Shown here: one piece after another, positions 3 to 26,752 of the stretch
Numbering within the stretch: the first letter of the stretch is position 1
How the letters are laid out: the number at the start of each line of letters is the position of its first letter
NCBI GenBank assembly: GCA_963675665.1
Contig: OY776510.1
Location: forward strand, 3,712,001-3,776,000
DNA length: 64,000 bases
Direction: 5' to 3'
DNA from: Spirochaetia bacterium
GTDB lineage: Bacteria > Spirochaetota > Spirochaetia > UBA9216
The notes under the pieces: model-generated
Seen by the model: only the letters and a program-made list of their open reading frames with translations
Databases searched by the model: none
Told to the model about the DNA's origin: nothing
Made by a program: the position numbers and the translations under genes

Positions 3-1061
3 GACTGTTTCCTTCTTTCCGAGAACAAAGCCGAATCGCTCCGGGACATTCTCGGAAGTGCTGCCGGTATTTTTACAGTACAGGGTGAATATGCCTGCCA
101 TTTCGGAGCGCTCAAGTACGCCCAATTAATCTTTGAGAAAGCATACGGCATAAGAGCGGGTTTCAAGCTTGATACCGATGAAGGCATTCACTCACAGGAT
201 TTAAAAGAAGCAACCGGCCGAACCTGGCTTGAACACCTCTGCCACCCATTCTGGGGCGGTTCGGCAGTTACTTCGGACAACCGCAGGGTAATGCTTGGAT
301 TCAATATCGGTGAATATGTAGATTCAAGGGACATGGATAATCTGGGATATGCAACTGCAATCAGAACACCGGAAGTCAAGCTGAAAGAAGACCTTAGGGG
401 GCCGTTTCTGCTTTTCAATAAAGGTGCCGCCCAGGCCAAGGGAACTGCTTTACTGAACCGTACGGAAAAACTTGAAGATTTTATCTCACACCCCCTCGTA
501 AAAGGCGGCGGATACGGGGTTGATAACTTCACATTAAAAGCAGCTGTTCCTGTCGGGTTTTCAATGGTCGGCAGGGCTGAAGATCAGCAATTCTATTTTT
601 CAGCCCTGGGAAGCGGGTTTCGGGGTATATTTAATCCTTTTCTCAGAATAATCCATTACAAGGACTCTGTAGCTGGAGCTGAACATAAAAATGAAGCTGT
701 CCGAAATGTAGCGGACATCTACCGGATGCTGATTTTCAGGGAAATGATGAAAAACCTTGATGTAATAGATCTGACACGTCCGTTCCCGTCTGTTTATGCT
801 TCAGAACTTGCGCCGCTTCAGGCATTCATCCTGTGGATATACTTTATCTTTAAGAGTTCTCTGGAAGGAGATGAGGCAACAGCGGAAGTTTACCTGAATG
901 AAGGCAAAAGCCGGTTAATCCCGCTTCTTTCTGAAATCTCGTGCGGCAAGGTTATGAAGCAATTTAATAAAGAGCGTTCGGATTGGAAATTCTTTATCAA
1001 TTCGGTAATGGATATTTCGGTCGAAGCCGCCCGCAGCTGGACAGAATCACTCAAACTCTGA
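3..1061 (+). CDS. Hypothetical protein, 5'-truncated by the window edge; possibly GT-A-fold-like
   Basis: The frame of ORF 291..1061 stays open back to position 3 (DCFLLSENKAES...GFKLDTDEGIH...). It has a DxD-like motif; no family recognised. Confidence 0.6.
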   Translation, partial: DCFLLSENKAESLRDILGSAAGIFTVQGEYACHFGALKYAQLIFEKAYGIRAGFKLDTDEGIHSQDLKEATGRTWLEHLCHPFWGGSAVTSDNRRVMLGFNIGEYVDSRDMDNLGYATAIRTPEVKLKEDLRGPFLLFNKGAAQAKGTALLNRTEKLEDFISHPLVKGGGYGVDNFTLKAAVPVGFSMVGRAEDQQFYFSALGSGFRGIFNPFLRIIHYKDSVAGAEHKNEAVRNVADIYRMLIFREMMKNLDVIDLTRPFPSVYASELAPLQAFILWIYFIFKSSLEGDEATAEVYLNEGKSRLIPLLSEISCGKVMKQFNKERSDWKFFINSVMDISVEAARSWTESLKL

Positions 1062-1079
1062 TTTATTTGGAGATTCTGC

Positions 1080-2864
1080 TTAATATCCCAGGTATTCACG
1101 TATCCTTTCTATAAAAACAGGTCCGTATGCCGACAGTTTGTGATCTCCCACACCATGAACTCTTAAAAAACTGCAGTTGTCCACGGGTTTTACAATACAC
1201 ATATCTTTCAGACTCTTATCCGAAAAAATTATATAAGGCGGCACATTTTTTTTTGAAGCCAATTCCGCCCGCACCACTTTTAAATATGAAAACATCTTTT
1301 CGTCATATATCCCGGAGCTTCGTTGCTCAGTGTTTAATTCCGCTGCCTTTTTCTCCTTCCTGATAATGAAAAAAGGTTTGCGGCCGTACAGTATCTCATA
1401 ACCTTTTGGAGTCAGTTTAACCGCATTGTAGGATTCGGAATCCTGGACAATTGCTTCCTGCCTTATCAAGTCGTCAACTATGCTTCTCCACCACTTTTTG
1501 GATTTTTCAGCGCCGGCTCCCCATGTTTTCAGTTTGTCATGATTGAATTTTCTGATTTTCTCGGTATCTGCGCCGCTGACAACATCAATTACATGCATTA
1601 TTCCAAAACGCTCGCCAGTCCTTACCGCTGCCGACATTATCTTCTGAGCGTCTTCCGTTGCATTCACTTTTTCAATCTGATCTGTGCATATATCACAGAA
1701 CCCGCAATTATCAGAAGCTTTTTCATCAAAATACTCAAGTAACTGCTTTCTTCGACATACATTTACCGATGCAAAAACAGACATCCTTCTTAGATTATCC
1801 GCTGCTTTCTTCTTCTCTTTATTATCCTTCATATTATCTATGTGATACTGAATCTTCATAATATCGCCTGTGCTGTACAGCAGAAGACATTGCGATGCAG
1901 AACCGTCTCGCCCGGCCCTTCCGGTTTCCTGATAATATCCTTCCATGCTGCGGGGAAGATCTCCGTGTATGATAAACCTGATGTTATTTTTGTTTATGCC
2001 CATTCCGAAAGCAATAGTTGCACATATTACGTCAATTCTGTCCCTGTTGAAAAGCTCCTGATTGGTGCGTCGAACTTCCGCGGACAGCCCGGCATGATAC
2101 GGCAGCGCTTTTATACCCCGCCCCGACAGATATTCAGCGGTTTTTTCAACATCTTTTCTTGATGTCCTGTAAACAATTCCGGCCTGTCCGCCGTGATCAC
2201 GTATAAAGGCTTCTATCTGTCCCAGCGCCTTGTCTTTTTTTTCCACCCGGTAAAAAAGTTCCGGCCTGTCGAATGAAGCTCTGACTTTCAGCGGGTTTTT
2301 AAGCTTAAGCAGCCGTATAATATCTTTCTGAACATGAAGAGTTGCTGTAGCTGTAAAAGCCGCTACCGGAATTCCCGGAAAGTATTTTTTTATCTTTGAA
2401 AGATTAAGATAATCCGGCCTGAAATCGTGGCCCCATTCCGACAGGCAATGCGCTTCATCAACAGCAAAAAGCCTTATTGGAAGTTTGCCGAGCTTTTCAT
2501 AATAGCCTTCAAGAGATAATCTCTCCGGTGAAAGATAAAGCAGTTTTATCTCTCCGCGGTACAACGAGGAATAAACCGACGATGTTTCTTCCGCAGACAA
2601 AGATGAATTAATAAATGCTGCGGACAGACCGTTTTCGACAGCTTCATCAACCTGGTCTTTCATGAGCGCTACCAGGGGGCTTACTACAATTGTAATACCA
2701 TCGAAAATTATTGAAGGCAATTGGTAGCAAATCGATTTGCCTCCGCCGGTCGGCATTGCGGCAAACACATCCCTTCCGTCAAGTACCGCCTTGATAATAT
2801 TCTCCTGGTTATCCCTGAATTTTTTGTAGCCGAACTGATCTTTTAAAATCTTCTTAAGATTCAT
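1080..2864 (-). CDS. recQ: ATP-dependent DNA helicase RecQ
   Basis: MPTGGGKS Walker A, VDEAHC, ATIAFGMGI, QETGRAGRDG, Zn-binding Cys cluster, RQC and C-terminal HRDC (VPPYIIFSD). Confidence 0.97.
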   Translation of the reverse strand: MNLKKILKDQFGYKKFRDNQENIIKAVLDGRDVFAAMPTGGGKSICYQLPSIIFDGITIVVSPLVALMKDQVDEAVENGLSAAFINSSLSAEETSSVYSSLYRGEIKLLYLSPERLSLEGYYEKLGKLPIRLFAVDEAHCLSEWGHDFRPDYLNLSKIKKYFPGIPVAAFTATATLHVQKDIIRLLKLKNPLKVRASFDRPELFYRVEKKDKALGQIEAFIRDHGGQAGIVYRTSRKDVEKTAEYLSGRGIKALPYHAGLSAEVRRTNQELFNRDRIDVICATIAFGMGINKNNIRFIIHGDLPRSMEGYYQETGRAGRDGSASQCLLLYSTGDIMKIQYHIDNMKDNKEKKKAADNLRRMSVFASVNVCRRKQLLEYFDEKASDNCGFCDICTDQIEKVNATEDAQKIMSAAVRTGERFGIMHVIDVVSGADTEKIRKFNHDKLKTWGAGAEKSKKWWRSIVDDLIRQEAIVQDSESYNAVKLTPKGYEILYGRKPFFIIRKEKKAAELNTEQRSSGIYDEKMFSYLKVVRAELASKKNVPPYIIFSDKSLKDMCIVKPVDNCSFLRVHGVGDHKLSAYGPVFIERIREYLGY

Positions 2865-2953
2865 GGACGCATTATATCTGCAATTATATTTACAGTATAC
2901 TGCAATCGTCTCATGTGATAATCTTGTTTAATAATTTAATTACAGGAGATATT

Positions 2954-3301
2954 ATGAAAAAAATAGCTTTTTTCGGATTCACCGGTGAACTGATGTGTTT
3001 TGCTCACGCCCTTTTTAATGCGGATGAGATGATAACAAACGGATGGGACGTCAAAGTAGTTTTGGAAGGACAATCAACCGGGCTGATACCGATTCTTGAT
3101 GATGAGAAAAATCCGTTTCGAAGCCTTTATATAAAACTCAGGAACATGCCCGATACTGTTTCCGTCTGCCAGGCCTGCGCTAACAAGATGGGAACGCTTG
3201 AAAATGCAAAATCCCAGAACCTTAAACTTGAAAACAACCTGCTCGGACATCCTTCGATTAAAGATTATATAGACAAAGGTTATCAGATAGTAACAATCTG
3301 A
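2954..3301 (+). CDS. DsrE/DsrF-like small protein
   Basis: HAL..A, VVLEG and VCQACA motifs; AGGAG RBS before ATG 2954. Confidence 0.7.
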   Translation: MKKIAFFGFTGELMCFAHALFNADEMITNGWDVKVVLEGQSTGLIPILDDEKNPFRSLYIKLRNMPDTVSVCQACANKMGTLENAKSQNLKLENNLLGHPSIKDYIDKGYQIVTI

Positions 3302-17568: not shown

Positions 17569-18492
17569 TCAAATCTTTTTCTTTTTTAACCCGTTCTGGT
17601 ACAAAAAAAATTCAGCTTCTATCAAAATCGGATCATCATAATTATCTATGCTGATATAGTTTACGATTTCCGTCAGAATACGAATTGTACCCAGTTCTAT
17701 TGAAGCCGCAATACTGTAACCAGCAAAATTCCACGGTCCTGAATTAATTGTAACAACAGAAACCGGTTTGTCGCTTAAACCCGTAACGACAGTTTCAGTA
17801 TACGGCCCTGCGAAAACTGCCGCAATACCTTCGCCGCCCTGAAAAAAAGCCTCATACCCGGTCAGAAGATCATTACCGGACACCTCCGTATCCTTAACAC
17901 TTGAAACATTCAGATTTTTTCGTTCATTTACAGTCTCCCATCCGCTGATAAAAGATGATTCAGAATCTGGATAAAGTTTTTCATCCTTAAAAAACACAGC
18001 ATGGGTTTTTTCATCCCTTGTCCCTGCCCAGACGCCTGCCGAATGGAAAGCTTTTTTGTAATCATATACAACTTTTACGGTATTATCAGTCCCGGCAGTA
18101 CTTCCGGTTCCGGTAAGAACAAATATTTTATCAGTGTATTCTCCGGCAATTTCTCCTGCTTCAGCGGAAAAAAGCGGGCTGAGGATAATATAACTTTCGC
18201 CGCAATTCTTAACCGCATCAGCAACCGCAGCCCTGTCTTTATCTTTTCCTTCAGCTTCTATTACAATTTTTTTTACTTTTTTTCCTTTGAGCCTGAAGCT
18301 TTCGCTTTGCAGAAACGGTATGTGTGAAAAAACAGCATTTTTCAGCGAATAGAATTTATCAGCTTCCAATTCACGATTCAGCGCAATATCCCAGAATTGA
18401 TCAGTGATGAGACACACAGGCTGAGAGTTTGCAGCCGCAATAAAAAATAAAACTAAAAAAACTGAAATAATTATTATCTTTTTATGATTCAT
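17569..18492 (-). CDS. Exported protein with periplasmic-binding-protein (BMP-like) character
   Basis: Signal peptide; AGEYTDKIFVL and YDYKKAFHSAG resemble BMP/PnrA segments. Confidence 0.5.
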   Translation of the reverse strand: MNHKKIIIISVFLVLFFIAAANSQPVCLITDQFWDIALNRELEADKFYSLKNAVFSHIPFLQSESFRLKGKKVKKIVIEAEGKDKDRAAVADAVKNCGESYIILSPLFSAEAGEIAGEYTDKIFVLTGTGSTAGTDNTVKVVYDYKKAFHSAGVWAGTRDEKTHAVFFKDEKLYPDSESSFISGWETVNERKNLNVSSVKDTEVSGNDLLTGYEAFFQGGEGIAAVFAGPYTETVVTGLSDKPVSVVTINSGPWNFAGYSIAASIELGTIRILTEIVNYISIDNYDDPILIEAEFFLYQNGLKKKKI

Positions 18493-18633: not shown

Positions 18634-19626
18634 ATGACTTCATATAAAGAACTTGGTCTTGTAAACACTAAAGAAATGTTTGCCAGGGCTGTGAAAGGCG
18701 GATATGCTATTCCCGCTTATAATTTTAATAATATGGAACAGATGCAGGCAATTATCCAGGCATGTGTTGAAACAAAATCACCTGTTATTCTTCAGGTTTC
18801 CGCCGGAGCAAGGAAGTATGCCAACGGTACGCTTCTCAGAAATATGGCGAAGGGTGCTGTTGAATATGCCCATGAGCTTGGATACGATATTCCTGTAGTA
18901 CTTCATCTTGACCACGGCGCCGACTTCGAAATCTGCAAAGAATGTATTGATAACGGTTTTTCTTCAGTAATGATAGACGGAAGCCATTTTCCCTATGAAG
19001 AAAATGTAGCTCTTACAAAAAAAGTTGTTGAATACGCCCACAAGTTCGACGTAACAGTTGAAGGCGAGCTTGGCGTTCTTGCAGGTATTGAGGATGATGT
19101 TGTTGCAGAACACTCAACCTATACACAACCCGAAGAAGTAATTGATTTTGTTGAGAAAACAGGTGTTGATTCACTTGCAATCTCGATCGGGACTTCACAC
19201 GGGGCCAATAAATTCAAACCGGAACAGTGCACCAGAAATGCCGAAGGCATCCTGATTCCTCCTCCGCTGCGTTTCGATATCCTCGAAGAAATTGAAAAAC
19301 AGCTTCCCGGTTTTCCGATTGTTCTTCACGGTTCTTCATCCGTACCCCAGGATCAGGTTGCAATAATTAATGCCAACGGCGGAGCCCTTCAGGATGCAGT
19401 CGGTATTCCCGAAGAACAGTTGAGAAAAGCCGCCAAATCTGCCGTCTGCAAGATAAATATTGATTCAGACGGAAGACTTGCAATGACAGCCGCCATCAGA
19501 AAACATCTTGCGGAGAATCCGGGGCATTTTGATCCCAGGCAGTACCTGGGCCCGGCCAGAGAATCACTTAAAAATATTTACAAAGCAAAAAACATCAATG
19601 TTCTCGGTTCTGCCGGCCAGGCATAA
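18634..19626 (+). CDS. fba: Class II fructose-bisphosphate aldolase
   Basis: LHLDHG, SVMIDGS, GTSHGA, VLHGSS, KINIDSD, FDPRQYL. Confidence 0.97.
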   Translation: MTSYKELGLVNTKEMFARAVKGGYAIPAYNFNNMEQMQAIIQACVETKSPVILQVSAGARKYANGTLLRNMAKGAVEYAHELGYDIPVVLHLDHGADFEICKECIDNGFSSVMIDGSHFPYEENVALTKKVVEYAHKFDVTVEGELGVLAGIEDDVVAEHSTYTQPEEVIDFVEKTGVDSLAISIGTSHGANKFKPEQCTRNAEGILIPPPLRFDILEEIEKQLPGFPIVLHGSSSVPQDQVAIINANGGALQDAVGIPEEQLRKAAKSAVCKINIDSDGRLAMTAAIRKHLAENPGHFDPRQYLGPARESLKNIYKAKNINVLGSAGQA

Positions 19627-19647
19627 ACTTTCTATAAAAACCAAAAA

Positions 19648-19679
19648 GGGGCATCTTCCGGCAAGGTGCCCTTTTTTTT
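19648..19679 (+). terminator. Rho-independent terminator after fba
   Basis: GGGCATCTT-CCGGC-AAGGTGCCC followed by a T8 run. Confidence 0.8.
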
Positions 19680-19726
19680 ATTGAAAAGTATCGTAAACGG
19701 AATAAATGGTTTAAAATATTTCGGTA

Positions 19727-22288
19727 ATGATAATATCAAAACACGCTGATCATACTGAAAAGCTATGCGGAATACGAGCCGAAGACATACACAAGTGGAT
19801 TGACGGGTATTTCGACAGACATAGTTTTGAGAATTTTATCGAATACGGCAGAACGCAGGGTTATGATCCGTATAACCACAGGCAGTTCAGACACTGCATT
19901 GAAGCCCTTCCCGAAGCTGTTAAGGAATTTTCCGACAAATACAGCAACAAGGATATTGAGTGCGTATTTAAATGTCACCTGGCTGATGATTATAGCGGAT
20001 ATATTCCCAACCGGGCGGATTTCACCGACGGACGCTTCATAAATAAATACCATGAAACTGCCGAAGAACCCGAAGCTGTTCTCAGCAGGACCGAGCTGGA
20101 AAAATATTTTAAAGGTCTGCATTATAAAAGTGAAGACAGGAACAAACGGCAGGGTCCTTTAAATCGGTTTTTTCTCAGAATAGCGTTGCCGTCAACAGCA
20201 GCTGTCGCTCTGTTTGTCGCCGCAGTATTCCTTTTCATGCTTCCGCAGTTTCATGACAGCCTTATGGCTGAAAAGGAGAACACCCTTGAGGAAATAACAT
20301 CGGTTGCCGTCAGCATACTGGACTACTATGCAGGGCTTGAAGCCTCCGGCGAGCTCTCCAGGGATGAAGCCCAGCGGGCATCCATAGAGGAGATAACCAA
20401 GCTTCGATATGGTCCCGATAATGACAATTACTTCTGGATTACGGACATGACGCCCGTGATGATTATGCATCCGTGGCGCCCTGATCTTATTGGTACCGAC
20501 CTGAGTGATTACAAGGACAGCATGAATCGCAGCGGTAAAAGACTTTTTGTTGAATCCGTAAAACTTGTTAATGAATCGGGAGGCGGCTTCCTTGAATACC
20601 TCTGGCAGCTTGATGAAAACGACAATCGTACTGTCCCGAAACTTTCCCGGGTAGAGGGATTTGCACTTTGGGGATGGATTATCGGAACAGGTATATACGT
20701 TAACGATGTTGAAGATGAAATTTCAGGATTAAGCAGACAGCTTGTAATAATTTTATTTTTAATCTCGGCTGTCCTGACTGTATTTCTTCTATACCTTGCG
20801 CTCCAAAGCCTCAGAATAGAACGTGAACGCAGACAGGCTGAAGCAGGGCTGATTGAAGCCAAGGAAAGGTATAGAGCCCTTGTTGAAGCCTCCAATGAAG
20901 GCTACCTCCTGATAGTGAACGGCTTGAATATCTTTTCAAACCATACCTTCAGGCGCATGACCGGCTTCCAGGAGGAAGAGATTGCCCAACCTGATTTTAC
21001 AAAAAAACTTTTTCCTGAAATAGACACAAACCAAAGAATTAAAAAACTTATTGATGAAATAAGCCGTCCGGGTTCTGCGGAATTTGAAGCCGTTATTGCA
21101 TGCCGAAGCGGTGCACGACTTGATGTTATAGTACGTAAATCCAACATTTTCCTGACAGAGTATAACGGCGTAATAGTCTCTTTCCGGTTGCTTCTTGGCA
21201 ACAGAAATATATTCTCTCCGTTTTTTGCTGCCGACACATCTCAGGCTGATCCTTATATTCTGTTTGATCAACTTGACGAAAGTCTGAACGCCATCAATGC
21301 TGTCCGTATACTGAATCTGCTTCCGGTTGCCGTCAGAACGCTTGTTTCCGACAGGGCCACATCAGAAGACATCCGCATTTTCATTTCAGACATCTATAAA
21401 AAAGGCCTTAAAAAGATTGCTTTTTTTGCTGAACAGGAACTCGGACCGCCTGTCTGTGAATATACTTTTCTGTCGCTGGGCAGCAGCGGCCGCAGCGAAC
21501 TGACTCTTTTTTCCGATCAGGACAATGCTCTTGTATTTCGAAGTGATGCCATTGATCCGGAACCCGTAAGACTTTACTTTCTTAATCTTGCAAACAGGAT
21601 CTGCAGTCTTCTAAACCAGGCGGGATTTCCTTTCTGTCCCGGCGGAATTATGGCGGTAAATCCGGCATATTGCCTTAGCTTGCAGGAATGGAAAAACAGA
21701 TACAAAGAGTGGTTTAACCAGGCGGATAAAATCTCGATTCTGGATATACACGTTTTCTTTGATATCACAACAGGATGGGGCTCCGACAGCCTGGTAAAAG
21801 AATTATACAGCTTTATTTTCTCGCAGAATGGTGTCAGTTCCGAATTCCTTCTTCACTTTGCACGCAACTGTCTTGAATACAAAGCGCCGCAGGGTATTCT
21901 AGGCAGTCTGAAAACTGAAATTCATGACGGGGTTCAGGTAATTAATCTGAAAGAAACCCTGATACCGCTGGTAAATTTCGCCCGCATTTCAGCACTAAGA
22001 GACGGAATAGAAAATCCTTCAACAACAGGCCGGCTTGAAATCTTGTACAGTAGCGGAAAGATTGACCTGGCATCATTTACAGAAATAACCCGTGCATTCG
22101 GAACCCTCTGGAAACTCAGGTTTTCCAATCAGGTTTTTGCCCATGGCGAGCTTAGAAAGGTCAACGATGATCTTGATCCGACGGCTCTCAATGCAAGGGA
22201 TTTAAAAGAACTTAAAGATGCAGTATCGGTAATCGCGGCGGTTCAGTCGCGTCTGAGCTATGAATTTCTCGGCGTGGATCTGTCATAA
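19727..22288 (+). CDS. Membrane sensor: His-rich N-terminal domain (DUF6915-like)-TM-sCache_2-TM-PAS-DUF294 nucleotidyltransferase-DUF294_C
   Basis: IHKWID/HRQFRH/HLADD; LRYGPDNDNYFWI..IMHP..GWIIGTGIYV (sCache_2); ERYRALVEAS (PAS); LGSSGRSELTLFSDQDNAL and CPGGIMAVNP (DUF294). Confidence 0.8.
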   Translation: MIISKHADHTEKLCGIRAEDIHKWIDGYFDRHSFENFIEYGRTQGYDPYNHRQFRHCIEALPEAVKEFSDKYSNKDIECVFKCHLADDYSGYIPNRADFTDGRFINKYHETAEEPEAVLSRTELEKYFKGLHYKSEDRNKRQGPLNRFFLRIALPSTAAVALFVAAVFLFMLPQFHDSLMAEKENTLEEITSVAVSILDYYAGLEASGELSRDEAQRASIEEITKLRYGPDNDNYFWITDMTPVMIMHPWRPDLIGTDLSDYKDSMNRSGKRLFVESVKLVNESGGGFLEYLWQLDENDNRTVPKLSRVEGFALWGWIIGTGIYVNDVEDEISGLSRQLVIILFLISAVLTVFLLYLALQSLRIERERRQAEAGLIEAKERYRALVEASNEGYLLIVNGLNIFSNHTFRRMTGFQEEEIAQPDFTKKLFPEIDTNQRIKKLIDEISRPGSAEFEAVIACRSGARLDVIVRKSNIFLTEYNGVIVSFRLLLGNRNIFSPFFAADTSQADPYILFDQLDESLNAINAVRILNLLPVAVRTLVSDRATSEDIRIFISDIYKKGLKKIAFFAEQELGPPVCEYTFLSLGSSGRSELTLFSDQDNALVFRSDAIDPEPVRLYFLNLANRICSLLNQAGFPFCPGGIMAVNPAYCLSLQEWKNRYKEWFNQADKISILDIHVFFDITTGWGSDSLVKELYSFIFSQNGVSSEFLLHFARNCLEYKAPQGILGSLKTEIHDGVQVINLKETLIPLVNFARISALRDGIENPSTTGRLEILYSSGKIDLASFTEITRAFGTLWKLRFSNQVFAHGELRKVNDDLDPTALNARDLKELKDAVSVIAAVQSRLSYEFLGVDLS

Positions 22289-22690
22289 GCAGCAATTTCG
22301 GACAGCAGCAGCGGTGCCGCGATATTTGTAAAAACGCCGGAAGATTTCAACAGCTGGACAGTAACCTCATCCGTACATGCTTTAGGCGTAATGCCCATTT
22401 CTGTAACAGCCCGCGTAAAATCAATATAGACGCTGCGGTATGCATTAATCTCTTCTTTAAGCAGTTTTCTCTTTTTCGGAAAAAAAAGCAGTGTGAATAT
22501 ACCTTCAACAGACAATGTCCCGATCAATACCTGCTGCAGTTTTGAAGGCAGGTCAATATCGTAATGATGGGTCCTTTCCCCCTCAATCAGGCCGGGCAAT
22601 ACTCCCAGATAAAGAATCCGGTCGTCACTGCCTGCCTTGAAGAGGTATCCGCCCTTCTCTGTAAGAATTTCCCTGCTGTTGAATGCGGAA
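22258..22690 (-). pseudogene. Probable 5'-truncated gene remnant
   Basis: The open frame extends upstream of the TTG at 22599 to the actP terminator, with no ATG or RBS seen. Confidence 0.35.
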
Positions 22691-22693
22691 ACA

Positions 22694-22725
22694 AGGGCCG
22701 ACCTCTGCCTGAGATCGGCCTTTTT
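22694..22725. terminator. Terminator hairpin downstream of actP (possibly bidirectional)
   Basis: GGCCGACCTC-TGCCT-GAGATCGGCC with a T run on + and CTTGTTT on -. Confidence 0.65.
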
Positions 22726-22729
22726 ATTA

Positions 22730-24637
22730 TTAATTACCAGCTGTTTCAGTTTCTTTTTTAACCTGGGTCAGAAGCGATACTATAACCAGGGTCAGCAAAC
22801 TGAGCGGAATTGATATAATACCCGGATTATCAATAGGTATTATCGCCTGCGACGCACTGAGTCCGTAACGCTCAAACATGCTCGGCGACAACAGAATTAT
22901 TCCGATAGCCGAAACCATGCCTACGGCAACTGATGCAGCAATACCCTTTGCAGTTGTTTTCTTCCAGAAAAGAAGCATGATGATAGCCGGAAAGTTGGCT
23001 GAGGCAGCAATTGCAAATGCCCATCCGACAAGAAACGATACATTCATTCCTTTAAAAAGGATACCAAGCAGTATGGCTATAATTCCTACGCTTACGGCAG
23101 CTATCTTTCCGATAATGACCTTTTTCCTGTCGGTCATTTCCACTTTAAAGTATCTGTCTACCAAATCATGTGCAACCGCGCCCGAAGCAGCAACAATCAG
23201 TCCGCTGACCGTTCCAAGGACCGTTGCGAATGCTATTGCGGAGATTATTGAGAACAGTACCTTGCCGAAAGCCTTTGCAAGCAACGGCGCGGCCATATTC
23301 GAACTCTCTACATCAAGAACGCCGTTAGTCATTGCACCTAGACCAATAAACAGGGTAAGTATATAGAAAAATCCTATTGCTATTATAGCAAGAATCGTAG
23401 ATTTCCTGGCATCCCTGGCGCTTGGAACCGTATAGTACCTTATTAATACATGAGGAAGTGCTGATGTGCCGAAGAACAGTGCCAGCATCAGCGAAACAAA
23501 GTTCATCTTGGATACAGGGGTTGCGCCCTTATCTACCTTGAATTTCAAACCGGGTCGAAGGATCTCGCTTCCCGGAGTGGGCTCCTGGTACCAGACGGAA
23601 ACATGACCGTCCTCGTAATCAAAGACATGTTTGGTAAAGCGGATTACAGTGCTGCTTTCGATTGTTGATATATAACTGAACGGGGTCAGAGGCCCTGTTG
23701 CATCAACCTCCTCACCGTCAACGATTATCCTGTCAAGATGCCCTACCGGATAAAAACGCTCTTCCTCTATCGGAGCCCCGTTATACAGCATTCCACTGTC
23801 TTCCAAATCAACAATGCTCAGGGCCTCGGTAAGCTTTCCCTCTTCGGTAAGCATCCACCAGTTGTCATACCCGTTATTGTGAAGCCTGACAAAACTGCCG
23901 ACTGAATCCCTGTATTGTCCGGTTATCTCATACCCGGGTTCGGCTATGGATGTTATATCTTCTCCGGCAGTCACTGCAGTCAATTCTGTAAAATCATGGT
24001 AATCGTCAGAAACATCCTTATCAAATCCTCTTGTTATTAACAGAACGACCAGAACTGTTGAAAAAACTATCAGAAGAGCACCTTTAATAAACTGAACATA
24101 CGTTGTTGATTTCATTCCTGCTGTCGCTACTATAAAAATAACAATGGACCCGACCATTATTACACCTGCATAATGCGGAAGTCCCAAAAGAGGGGTTACA
24201 AGAGCGCCGGCGCCTACCATCTGCGGTATAAGATAGAAGATGGAAACAAGAAGAGTGCTGATTCCGGCCATAAGCTGAATGGCAGGTGAATTGAACCTGG
24301 AATCAAGGGCATCGGTAAAAGTGTACTTTCCAAGTTTTTTCATCGGTTCGGCAACAACAAACAGGGCCATTACCCACCCTGCAAGATAACCTATCGAATA
24401 GAGAAACCCATCGTATCCCGAAAACGCAATCATTCCGCATATACCGAGAAACGATGCTGCAGACAGATAGTCTCCGGCAAAAGCGATACCGTTCACGGAC
24501 CAGGGAATGGTGCCGCCTGCGGCAAAATACCCTTTTGCAGAGCTTGTTTTTCTTGCGGACAGAATTGAAATTGTCAGGACCGAAGCAACAATAGCCAGAA
24601 AGAGAATTATCGGCATTAAAGAAGCGTTATAAATCAT
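22730..24637 (-). CDS. actP: Cation/acetate symporter (SSS family, ActP-like) with a large extramembrane insert
   Basis: NGIAFAGDYLSAASFLG, YLIPQMVGAG, GMKSTTYVQ, GTSALPHVLIRYYTVP, FAIAASANFP. Confidence 0.9.
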   Translation of the reverse strand: MIYNASLMPIILFLAIVASVLTISILSARKTSSAKGYFAAGGTIPWSVNGIAFAGDYLSAASFLGICGMIAFSGYDGFLYSIGYLAGWVMALFVVAEPMKKLGKYTFTDALDSRFNSPAIQLMAGISTLLVSIFYLIPQMVGAGALVTPLLGLPHYAGVIMVGSIVIFIVATAGMKSTTYVQFIKGALLIVFSTVLVVLLITRGFDKDVSDDYHDFTELTAVTAGEDITSIAEPGYEITGQYRDSVGSFVRLHNNGYDNWWMLTEEGKLTEALSIVDLEDSGMLYNGAPIEEERFYPVGHLDRIIVDGEEVDATGPLTPFSYISTIESSTVIRFTKHVFDYEDGHVSVWYQEPTPGSEILRPGLKFKVDKGATPVSKMNFVSLMLALFFGTSALPHVLIRYYTVPSARDARKSTILAIIAIGFFYILTLFIGLGAMTNGVLDVESSNMAAPLLAKAFGKVLFSIISAIAFATVLGTVSGLIVAASGAVAHDLVDRYFKVEMTDRKKVIIGKIAAVSVGIIAILLGILFKGMNVSFLVGWAFAIAASANFPAIIMLLFWKKTTAKGIAASVAVGMVSAIGIILLSPSMFERYGLSASQAIIPIDNPGIISIPLSLLTLVIVSLLTQVKKETETAGN

Positions 24638-24930
24638 TTTTCATCTTCTCCTTCGTCCGATAAAGCATTTAATTCATTTTCTTTTTTCGTACATATTGCG
24701 TTATAGACTATTCCGGCAATTATTGCCAGGATAATAAGTCCGAACCCGTAAGTGACGGCCAGATTCAAGCCCAGAACAACAGAAACCCCCATAAGTTTGG
24801 GAGCTACAGTGTTTATAATGATAAATCCGGCATACACAACAGCATAAGCAATAAACATTCGGATTCCTATTTTCTTTTTAAATTCAGATGCTGGATCTTT
24901 CCCGGCGGGAACGGCAGGTTCGTGCAACAT
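24634..24930 (-). CDS. DUF485 (YjcH-like) small membrane protein
   Basis: Two TM helices, overlaps the actP start, which is the canonical yjcH-actP arrangement. Confidence 0.85.
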   Translation of the reverse strand: MLHEPAVPAGKDPASEFKKKIGIRMFIAYAVVYAGFIIINTVAPKLMGVSVVLGLNLAVTYGFGLIILAIIAGIVYNAICTKKENELNALSDEGEDEK

Positions 24931-25117
24931 TAAATTCTCCTTTTAATAATGTTTATTAACAATATCATATTAATATGGATAGTCAAGTTTTATACTGTTT
25001 ACAATTTCAAAACGATTTCAAAATGATCATTCAAATTGTATAGCCAAGAAAACTATAATTTTGTATAGTAACCCGCTGATTCTTCAGCTAAAGTTATATA
25101 AATCATGGGAGATTTTA

Positions 25118-25726
25118 ATGTCTACATCACAGACTTACGGAAACCCGGCGCCGTTAGGCCTTCTGGGTTTCGGTTTGACTACAGTTCTGCTTAATATTCA
25201 CAATGCAGGGTTTTATCCTCTTACATCGATGATACTCGGAATGGGAATTTTCGTCGGGGGGCTGGCACAGGTCATTGCCGGTATCCAGGAATGGAAAGTC
25301 AATAATACCTTTGGTGCCACAGCATTCACTTTGTACGGTTTTTTCTGGCTGTCATTTGTTGCACTCAAGGTTTTACCTTCAGAAACAGTTATGTCAGCCG
25401 CTTCCGCTGATATGGGTTTTTATCTGCTTTTGTGGGGGCTGTTCACTCTTTTCATGTTTTTCGGAACACTTAAAATCAGCCGCGCACACCAGACTGTTTT
25501 CATGAGTCTGACTATTCTTTTTTTCCTTCTTGCAATCGCCGATTTTACGGAAAATCATACAATTAAAACAATTGCAGGATTTGAAGGTATTTTCTGCGGA
25601 GCTTCCGCTTTCTACACTGCTGCAGCAATTGTGCTTAACGAGGTGTATGGGAAAACAATCCTGCCGCTTGGAATTGCCGCAGATGTAATCGCAGGCAAAG
25701 CGGAACTTGAAGCAATAGCAATCTGA
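25118..25726 (+). CDS. satP: Acetate uptake transporter (GPR1/FUN34/YaaH, SatP)
   Basis: [14 protein letters not shown] signature, [15 protein letters not shown]. Confidence 0.93.
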
Positions 25727-25738
25727 TTCTTTCTTCCG

Positions 25739-26752
25739 TCAGGGATATGTCTTCCTGAATCCGGCTACTCTTGAGCCGGCGCCGAGATCAACATCAGATC
25801 GGTCGCCGCGCTTAAGGTAGTGGTAACCCAAACCTGCCACCATGGCGGCATTATCGGTGCACAGCTCCATTAACGGAAAAAACACCTCTATATTATTCTT
25901 TTTTGCAAGCAAAGTTCGTAAATATGAATTAGCCGCGACACCGCCGCCTGCTACAACCCTGTTTATTCCCGTATCACCGACAGCCTTAAAAAGTCTTTTT
26001 GTCAGCATCTTTATGGCCGCCTTCTGAAAAGATGCGGCAATATTCTCCGGAGTTTTTTCGTAACCCTCATTATGAAACTGATCAAGCTGGTTTATAACGG
26101 CAGTTTTCAGACCCGAATATGAAACATCATAACGGTGTTCGCCCTTGTGAAGCGAAGGATCAGGGAAACTGAATGCCGAAGGGTCCCCCTTCGCTGCAAG
26201 CCGGTCTATAAGAAGTCCGCCGGGATAACCGAAGCCGTAATGCTTGGCAACCTTGTCGTATGCTTCACCGCATGCATCATCAATTGTGGTACCCAGAACC
26301 TCTACTTTATCAAATGAGCTTACTACTGATATTATTGTATGGCCTCCTGATACTATAAGACCTATGAAAGGATAATTTATATCATATTCGAGCTGTGCAG
26401 CATACATATGGGCAAGTATATGGTCTATACCGATAAACGGTATACCTGCAGATAAAGAAAGCCCCTTTGCAAATGACAGGCCTACCATTAGCGAACCTAT
26501 CAGGCCGGGTCTGTTGGTTACAGCAATACCGTCTATATCATTCAGTGTTTTGCCGGAAGCATCAATTGCATTCTCGACTACGCTTTTTATCCACTCGGTA
26601 TGAGTTCTTGATGCGATCTCCGGGACAACTCCGTCATAGGGTTTATGAATATCAATCTGTGTTGCGATATTATTGCTCAGGATTTTCTTTCCGTTTTCGA
26701 CCACTGCGGCCGAACACTCATCACATGAACTTTCAATACCCAGAACCAACAT
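25739..26752 (-). CDS. tsaD: tRNA N6-adenosine threonylcarbamoyltransferase
   Basis: LGIESSCDE, GVVPEIASRTH, HILAH, VSGGHT, DDACGEAYDK, CTDNAAM. Confidence 0.97.
   Translation of the reverse strand: MLVLGIESSCDECSAAVVENGKKILSNNIATQIDIHKPYDGVVPEIASRTHTEWIKSVVENAIDASGKTLNDIDGIAVTNRPGLIGSLMVGLSFAKGLSLSAGIPFIGIDHILAHMYAAQLEYDINYPFIGLIVSGGHTIISVVSSFDKVEVLGTTIDDACGEAYDKVAKHYGFGYPGGLLIDRLAAKGDPSAFSFPDPSLHKGEHRYDVSYSGLKTAVINQLDQFHNEGYEKTPENIAASFQKAAIKMLTKRLFKAVGDTGINRVVAGGGVAANSYLRTLLAKKNNIEVFFPLMELCTDNAAMVAGLGYHYLKRGDRSDVDLGAGSRVAGFRKTYP

Follow-up and report, generated by a model that had tools for sequence, protein, structure and literature searches.

A candidate carboxylate receptor with a DUF294 nucleotidyltransferase output and a DUF6915-like partner domain in a Spirochaetia genome

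The window, a stretch of 64,000 nucleotides (nt) from a Spirochaetia bacterium (contig OY776510.1), contains an intact open reading frame (ORF) for a membrane sensor of 853 amino acids (aa; all aa positions refer to this protein unless stated otherwise). With a probability of roughly 45%, this sensor is a one-component carboxylate receptor whose output is a DUF294 nucleotidyltransferase (NTase) and whose N-terminal domain, below the N-domain, serves as an eraser, the whole governing the uptake or use of carboxylates. The gene and the parts of its product are as follows, TM denoting a transmembrane segment.

19727..22288, plus strand: sensor gene, 853 aa, with DUF6915-like domain, TM, sCache_2, TM, PAS, DUF294 and DUF294_C (ORF and Pfam)
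19727..20119, plus strand: N-terminal cytoplasmic domain rich in His, Asp and Arg, aa 1-131, divergent DUF6915 (profile, alignment, model)
20180..20236, plus strand: TM1, aa 152-170, with a basic linker before it (hydropathy scan)
20246..20731, plus strand: extracytoplasmic sCache_2 domain, aa 174-335 (Pfam, PDB alignment)
20741..20797, plus strand: TM2, aa 339-357, then a strongly conserved helical linker, aa ~360-393 (hydropathy, alignments)
20858..21196, plus strand: cytoplasmic PAS domain, aa 378-490 (Pfam)
21329..21727, plus strand: DUF294 core, NTase of the pol-beta type, aa 535-667 (Pfam, alignments)
21842..22267, plus strand: DUF294_C helical substrate-binding domain, aa 706-847 (Pfam)

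The initial annotation, made from the sequence alone, had described an 853-aa multidomain protein, and the ORF and the Pfam matches agree with it; the motifs that it quoted (KHA, IHKWID, HRQFRH, HLADD, IP) all lie within aa 1-95. The layout of a transmembrane one-component receptor is also borne out. Hydrophobic segments at 152-170 and 339-357 lie on either side of the Cache domain in the hydropathy scan, and the PAS domain (Pfam match at aa 380-476, E 3e-5, above the cut-off) and the NTase are placed in the cytoplasm. As a basic linker precedes TM1, the N-terminus is probably inside, the Cache domain outside, and the PAS domain and NTase inside. Pfam finds neither a cyclic nucleotide monophosphate (cNMP) binding domain (cNMP_binding) nor a CBS domain in the sensor; the Cache and PAS domains are there instead. 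Thus what the initial annotation observed is confirmed, and its interpretation is partly supported. Of 7,997 candidates that were scored, 699 are homologues of the sensor at E<=0.001. When one genome per species was scanned, at least 121 places proved to encode a relative, and 80 loci were kept for counts. They span Spirochaetales, Kiritimatiellia/Verrucomicrobiota, Planctomycetota, Cloacimonadota, Fibrobacterales, Vibrio and others.

The sCache_2 match (aa 180-334, E 9e-32) scores 110.5 bits against a cut-off of 25, and among PDB sequences the domain aligns with the solved chains 4K08 and 5G4Y at E ~1e-33. The PscD paper (PMC5062169) lists seven propionate contacts, Y90, W92, H103, F126, Y143, W145 and K156, and gives them as identical among PscD, McpP and the acetate-bound Adeh_3718. 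Chain positions were converted to PscD numbering via the construct start given in the same text, and the HMMER alignment was used. All seven contacts listed there are identical in the sensor (Y235, W237, H248, F274, Y291, W293, K305), and they are kept in 119-120 of 120 aligned homologues. The ligand is therefore likely a small monocarboxylate of the acetate, propionate, glycolate or pyruvate class. This strengthens the initial assignment of the Cache domain to short carboxylates, the pocket having every contact residue described there for solved C2/C3-carboxylate sensors. One of the seven positions varies with the neighbourhood: W237 is replaced by F in 17 of 17 sensors linked to the membrane protein DUF3360 and in none of 53 others. 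These 17 come from few lineages only, namely Vibrio, Corallincola and one metagenome-assembled genome (MAG) of Fibrobacterales (loci L031, L038, L039, L041, L046 and 12 more). The replacement would fit a ligand specificity that tracks the transporter type, and it suggests a different ligand for the DUF3360 subgroup.

Both Pfam models of the output part score above their cut-offs: DUF294 at aa 535-667 (E 6e-36, 123.8 bits) and DUF294_C at aa 706-847 (E 2e-27, 96 bits). The GS..DQD motif of pol-beta-type NTases is LGSSGRSELTLFSDQDNAL (aa 584-601). Positions G585, S586, D597, D599 and D679, the last being a third invariant Asp just past the Pfam DUF294 match, are invariant in all 73 aligned homologues, and the first four are also kept in 70 of 70 full-length locus proteins. 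The catalytic motif noted at first thus recurs intact in every homologue examined, and the enzyme is, judged by this motif, catalytically intact.

The N-domain is a dedicated partner of DUF294 enzymes, since it is always fused in the sensors, is a separate gene beside the paralogue of the same genome, and is split off in a metagenome locus. This association is new here. Firstly, the fusion is present in 120 of 120 aligned homologues and in 70 of 70 full-length locus proteins; the absence from orthologues that the initial annotation had considered was not encountered. Secondly, the same genome has a second DUF294 gene, outside the window, encoding a cytoplasmic PAS-CBS-DUF294-DUF294_C protein of 700 aa, and a 110-aa stand-alone N-domain gene begins 7 nt past its stop codon (G000:C1:1310825-1313267; L083:8826-11268). 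In this genome, then, each of the two DUF294 genes has an N-domain as partner, and neither has an exonuclease. The same split pair, with the same helicase and kinase genes downstream, occurs in the nearest relative (G251) and in metagenome locus L084; the three instances count as roughly one event. Finally, a metagenome scan made with an alignment of five closer rows found locus L086, where an ActP-like gene is followed by a TM-Cache-TM-PAS-CBS-DUF294 gene lacking the N-domain and then directly by a 111-aa stand-alone copy.

Downstream of the split pair in the window's genome there are a 323-aa ORF, a 504-aa ORF with fn3 and purple-acid-phosphatase-N matches, and genes for a DEAD-box helicase and an FGGY kinase. 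In L084 the pair has, two genes upstream, a gene for a type III glutamine synthetase (926-3046), which is not found at the equivalent place in the window's genome.

Relatives lacking the N-domain can have other enzymes in its place. An RNase_T gene is immediately downstream of four of four soluble (cNMP-)CBS-DUF294 genes (three in Vibrio mediterranei, one in Corallincola), which adjoin acs, sodium:solute symporter (SSS) or DUF4212+SSS genes. The sister family of Cache-CBS-DUF294 receptors contains the N-domain in 0 of its 120 listed members; a PHP domain precedes TM1 at the N-terminus in 6 of the 120 (precomputed Pfam), with two more that look PHP-like by eye. Across an even sample of 251 genomes of the phylum, 16 have DUF294 genes and four have the N-domain. 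The 18 DUF294 genes of this sample (17 from the initial scan and one added later), the window genome's own two being excluded, have the following partners.

N-domain, fused: 3 of 18
PHP, fused, N-terminal: 1 of 18
MJ1311-like domain (PDB 3WQO, 9e-8), fused, N-terminal: 1 of 18
RNase_T, fused, N-terminal: 3 of 18
RNase_T, next gene: 3 of 18
RNase_T, elsewhere in the cluster: 1 of 18
Dbr1-like metallophosphoesterase (PDB 4PEH, 1e-5), translationally coupled downstream gene: 1 of 18
No partner detected: 5 of 18

None of the 18 has two kinds of partner together. The flanks of the 80 loci with a fused N-domain contain an RNase_T ORF in one case, at 4.2 kb and not adjacent, and a PHP, metallophosphoesterase or TIM-barrel domain in none; nor does Pfam find an RNase_T-type gene in the neighbourhood of the sensor in the window. 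These samples are small and related, and they were annotated with our own query sequences, not with curated models. The N-domain and the known phosphoesterases are distributed in a complementary way, which is the chief reason for reading the N-domain as the phosphoesterase of the pair; the distribution supports this by position only. The initial annotation had proposed a built-in eraser replacing an exonuclease and possibly binding metal like an HD domain. The positional part is backed by the comparison, the N-domain occupying slots held elsewhere by RNase_T, PHP or metallophosphoesterase; the HD-like part is not supported, nor is the suggestion that the transporter is the target of the NTase.

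Two further arrangements were seen among the loci. The metagenome loci L122, L126 and L128 have a 928-aa N-domain-fused sensor beside a divergent cNMP-CBS-DUF294 gene (647 aa) and an SSS gene, and in L126 the three genes that were scanned around the soluble DUF294 gene include no RNase_T, as though the two NTases shared a single N-domain. In L142 (G029:C63:1-16000) two Cache-DUF294 paralogues of 856 and 967 aa flank a SatP gene, with ActP-like+DUF485 and a second SSS alongside; the N-domain, PHP and RNase_T were not detected there, and a neighbouring 300-aa protein matches only hypothetical PDB proteins (2G8L).

The nature of these partners bears on what the NTase makes. GlnD is a uridylyltransferase/uridylyl-removing enzyme and GlnE an adenylyltransferase/adenylyl-removing enzyme, the removing modules being the HD domain of GlnD and the AR domain of GlnE. 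In PMC3710099, DUF294_C is grouped with the C-terminal domains of GlnD and GlnE, and one homologue (P0129) has a weak GlnD_UR_UTase match (2.8e-4). Among PDB sequences the whole-family profile finds no solved GlnD or GlnE chain at E<=1, giving Cache and PAS matches only. Thus the link is indirect, consisting of this grouping and one weak match, and the analogy with protein nucleotidylation is drawn from the Pfam grouping only, since no solved chain was matched. One possibility is that the NTase makes a nucleotide-nucleotide linkage instead, that is, a linear or 2'-5'/3'-5' oligonucleotide messenger or an RNA tail, which the partner degrades; in that case the receptor would be closer in kind to a cyclase/phosphodiesterase pair than to GlnD or GlnE. 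The same lack of a GlnD/GlnE chain speaks for such a product, and it is retained as a serious rival because among the partners of the relatives are enzymes acting on phosphodiesters of nucleic acids, namely RNase_T 3'-5' exonucleases and a protein related to the RNA lariat debranching enzyme. However, the grouping of DUF294_C and the P0129 match point towards GlnD and GlnE, and no messenger effector or receptor is evident in the neighbourhoods. We regard a messenger or RNA tail as improbable, with perhaps one chance in several.

By direct comparison, the N-terminal 149 aa match DUF6915 alone, below threshold (E 0.011; 16.3 bits against a cut-off of 27). A profile built from eight N-domain sequences retrieved 81 matches at E<=0.001 from 1.84 billion cluster representatives, 29 of them at E<=1e-30. 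Pfam annotation of 39 matches assigned all eight long ones to Cache proteins, four complete with DUF294 and four fragment-like. Eight close stand-alone matches (110-151 aa) belong to no Pfam family, whereas among the distant stand-alone ones ten are above the DUF6915 cut-off and nine just under it; of the rest, two have no family and two are unrelated repeat or low-complexity proteins. Language-model neighbours in the ESM Atlas point the same way: DUF6915 clusters, for the most part from tailed phages, make up 29 of the 30 feature hits. PHROG 8143 is matched by two distant stand-alone proteins, and the N-domain of the window has no PHROG match. The DUF6915 resemblance noticed initially is therefore upheld by the profile, by the Atlas neighbours and by a shared core motif, the direct score remaining sub-threshold.

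This core has the pattern H..HxWxD..HRxxRH..HxxxD. Across 47 aligned sequences H22, D26, R52, H56, H84 and D88 are invariant, and H6, G15, W24, H51, R55 and F68 are kept in at least 90%. Among the 120 homologues of the sensor H22, W24, D26, H51, R52, H56, H84, D88, Y89 and H109 never vary, and the N-domain is the most conserved part of the protein, with a mean identity to the query of 0.58 versus 0.47 for DUF294. The DUF294-linked clade has invariant positions of its own, Y89, G91, P94, D98, F99, F104 and H109, absent from the wider DUF6915 family.

An AlphaFold model of the N-domain made with the 47-sequence alignment is all-helical, with a predicted local distance difference test score (pLDDT) of 89.5 and a predicted template modelling score of 0.75. 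An earlier model (pLDDT 70.7) had given Foldseek and VIA best values of E 0.76 and Z 5.2, the top rows being unrelated helical proteins. HD-type hydrolases appeared among noise rows only. The HD-like idea of the initial annotation is unsupported, as neither Foldseek nor exhaustive alignment found a structural relative; moreover, the motifs are HxWxD, HRxxRH and HxxxD, with no conserved HD dipeptide. The spacing of His and Asp also recalls hemerythrin-like di-iron proteins, and this candidate was dropped, having no fold match behind it. A predicted complex of the N-domain (aa 1-131) with the NTase part (aa 500-853), from a 73-row alignment, had a score of 0.17 and a mark of 0.32, and weighs neither way.

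A more specific proposal would be that the N-domain is a His/Asp metallo-phosphodiesterase of a new fold, forming with DUF294 a ligand-controlled make-and-break pair for a reversible tag or an oligonucleotide messenger; we think this unlikely in so definite a form. A hydrolase may also be the wrong class altogether. The N-domain could be the acceptor of the NTase or a regulatory input to it, that is, a metal, redox or nucleotide switch or a site of self-modification. Fusion and fission fit a substrate or regulator as well as an eraser, and no hydrolase fold was recognised. Tyrosines are the residues modified by GlnD and GlnE, and the extra invariants of the DUF294-linked clade include one. However, the corresponding slots of the relatives hold four families of recognised or probable phosphoesterases, not acceptor- or sensor-like domains, and the family-wide invariants (five His, two Asp, two Arg) are more typical of a metal or phosphate site than of a docking surface. 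An acceptor or regulator role is on balance doubtful, about as much so as the new-fold enzyme.

The transporter neighbourhood was counted within four genes of the sensor, full flanks meaning at least 5 kb on both sides (43 loci). The classes counted were ActP-like+DUF485, DUF4212+SSS of the VC_2705 type, DUF3360 and SatP. A carboxylate-type transporter is nearby in 42 of the 80 loci, and in 31 of the 43 with full flanks. An ActP-like symporter with an insertion of the type seen in the window occurs in 15 of the 80, a DUF485 gene in 13, another SSS in ten (seven with the DUF4212 small subunit; the type checked is VC_2705), and DUF3360, a membrane protein with at least nine hydrophobic segments, in 18. 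SatP is found in two. Porin-like genes are present in 11. The linkage to SSS and SatP genes expected by the initial annotation therefore holds for SSS and other carboxylate-type transporters and is rare for SatP.

Alternatively, the transporter genes might lie beside the sensor by accident, the sensor being a general regulator that responds to carboxylates but acts elsewhere, for instance in metabolism, motility or stress. The loci with no transporter nearby have heterogeneous neighbours, in the window the sensor gene and the ActP-like operon converge and a class II aldolase gene precedes the sensor, and the split paralogue pair of the same genome has no transporter near it. On the other hand, several unrelated transporter families recur beside the sensor across several phyla, a pocket residue co-varies with the transporter type, and relatives lacking the N-domain also adjoin SSS genes. 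Incidental neighbourhood is thus the least probable of the alternatives, and we consider it quite unlikely.

The neighbouring features of the window are these.

22258..22599, minus strand: small conserved ORF between the sensor and ActP-like genes, 113 aa, no family, with a 31-nt overlap with the 3' end of the sensor gene (homology)
22696..22720, minus strand: terminator-like hairpin just past the ActP-like gene (consensus scan only)
22730..24637, minus strand: ActP/MctC-like sodium:solute symporter, 635 aa (Pfam/family match)
23498..24034, minus strand: acidic insertion of the symporter, ~180 aa (its aa 202-380), no family (hydropathy; putative topology)
24634..24930, minus strand: DUF485 small membrane protein (YjcH-like), overlapping the symporter start (Pfam)
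25061..25726, plus strand: SatP/AceTr acetate uptake transporter (Pfam/family match)

The DUF485-actP and satP neighbours named initially are present at these positions. The symporter insertion is common to 14 of 14 full-length strong ActP-like neighbours of the sensor elsewhere, and more distant SSS neighbours lack it. Since it is acidic and follows six transmembrane segments counted from an outside N-terminus, it is probably extracytoplasmic. It was considered as a target of nucleotidylation and rejected in view of this probable location; its role could be to contact the Cache domain or to capture substrate. The 113-aa ORF has a counterpart of 168 aa, with 40% identity (E 2e-26), in the corresponding position of a Spirochaetales MAG (L004:12535-13041), and a further similar ORF is clustered in L044 and L062. 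Neither it nor the insertion matches a Pfam family at E<=1. For the SatP ORF the listed start is a TTG at 25061; however, a promoter-like site (10 of 12 positions) occupies 25030-25059 and the family match does not begin until residue 28, so the start is probably the ATG at 25118. Upstream of the sensor lies the gene of a class II fructose-bisphosphate aldolase. Upstream of the latter is a 307-aa ORF (17569-18492, minus strand) with no Pfam or NCBIfam family at E<=0.01. An Rfam scan of 19400-25800 at E<=0.1 found nothing.

The proposed mechanism would be as follows. The periplasmic sCache_2 pocket would bind a small monocarboxylate of the acetate, propionate, glycolate or pyruvate class, and the signal would pass through TM2, the conserved helical linker and the PAS domain to a DUF294 NTase of the GlnD/GlnE type. 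The N-domain, most likely a small metal-dependent phosphoesterase undoing the NTase product, would be tethered to TM1 at the cytoplasmic face, and the PAS-NTase part would hang on TM2; as the two sit on different helices, a ligand-induced helix movement could shift the balance between addition and removal. Ligand binding would thus set a write/erase balance on a nucleotide acceptor. Jointly with the transporter genes beside it, the system would govern how short-chain carboxylates are taken up or used, with no DNA-binding output.

Several points weigh against this mechanism. The better N-domain model matches no solved fold (Foldseek best E 2.6; VIA best Z 4.9 in an exhaustive comparison with 48,161 chains), and the N-domain profile yields one noise match, at E 1.2, among PDB sequences. 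As there is no fold or PDB match, the hydrolase assignment is made from position and the invariant His/Asp/Arg pattern alone. Moreover, DUF6915 relatives are common as stand-alone phage proteins with no DUF294 at all, and thus the basic function of the fold need not concern this NTase. Five of the 18 sampled DUF294 genes have no detected partner, 38 of the 80 loci have no transporter nearby (many of these loci are short), and the relatives in both the partner and the locus counts are not independent. The sensor gene is convergent with the ActP-like operon and is not co-transcribed with it. Searches of open-access text turned up no recorded activity for any DUF294 or DUF6915 protein. Finally, according to PMC5715377, growth on acetate changed only negligibly when a soluble relative, Pflu5625 of Pseudomonas fluorescens SBW25, was deleted, and the authors called its function unknown.

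No paper on DUF6915, DUF3360 or this receptor architecture was found in open-access text. We take PA3233 of P. aeruginosa to be a DUF294 protein and PA3233/PA3232 to be a soluble pair. The cluster PA3232-PA3235 with ActP is about 16-fold induced on propionate, according to PMC9765439. Pflu5625, as stated in PMC5715377, is induced via CrbS/R together with acs and actP.

DUF294/COG2905 proteins occur widely and form part of the acetate-uptake regulon in well-studied bacteria, with no substrate or product on record. The receptor form, a widespread and biochemically unstudied family, offers a predicted external ligand, a catalytic centre that is intact by motif and a small candidate opposing enzyme. 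Since this genome encodes the latter both in fused form and as a gene of its own, each half can be produced separately and the two combined. If the write/erase proposal were true, signals would cross the membrane by a route that involves no phosphorylation and no known second messenger, and the phage-frequent DUF6915 would gain a first function. The more specific proposal of a new-fold metallo-phosphodiesterase, if true, would amount to a mode of transmembrane signalling unlike that of kinases, cyclases and chemoreceptors; both DUF294/COG2905 and DUF6915 would then have a first function, and the many phage copies of DUF6915 could act on host nucleotide signals.

The sensor shares features with several known systems. 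With GlnD and GlnE it has in common a pol-beta-type NTase followed by a helical C-terminal domain, in the same Pfam grouping as given in PMC3710099, and adding and removing activities in one polypeptide, the removing part being a candidate here. However, it has no HD or ACT domain, the window has no PII or glutamine synthetase context, and its candidate removing module is of another, unassigned fold. The soluble COG2905-type proteins (cNMP-binding, CBS pair, DUF294, DUF294_C), such as Pflu5625, have the same DUF294+DUF294_C output and the same association with acetate-type uptake genes (acs, SSS, DUF4212+SSS). Their input is cytoplasmic, through cNMP and CBS domains, whereas the sensor is membrane-bound with an extracytoplasmic Cache and a PAS domain; and they have an adjacent RNase_T exonuclease gene where the sensor has a fused DUF6915-like domain. 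The sister receptors, PHP-TM-Cache-TM-PAS-CBS-DUF294 and Cache-DUF294 with a coupled metallophosphoesterase, share the receptor body and the N-terminal or downstream slot, but contain a recognised phosphoesterase and a CBS pair instead of the DUF6915-like domain and no CBS. DUF6915 itself (PF21866; PHROG 8143), small, stand-alone and frequent in tailed phages, shares the core motif, whereas the domain of the window type has extra invariant C-terminal motifs and is found only with DUF294 enzymes. PscD (5G4Y/5G4Z), Adeh_3718 (4K08) and McpP have an sCache_2 domain with the same seven contacts; their output is a methyl-accepting chemotaxis protein signalling domain, whereas that of the sensor is a nucleotidyltransferase.

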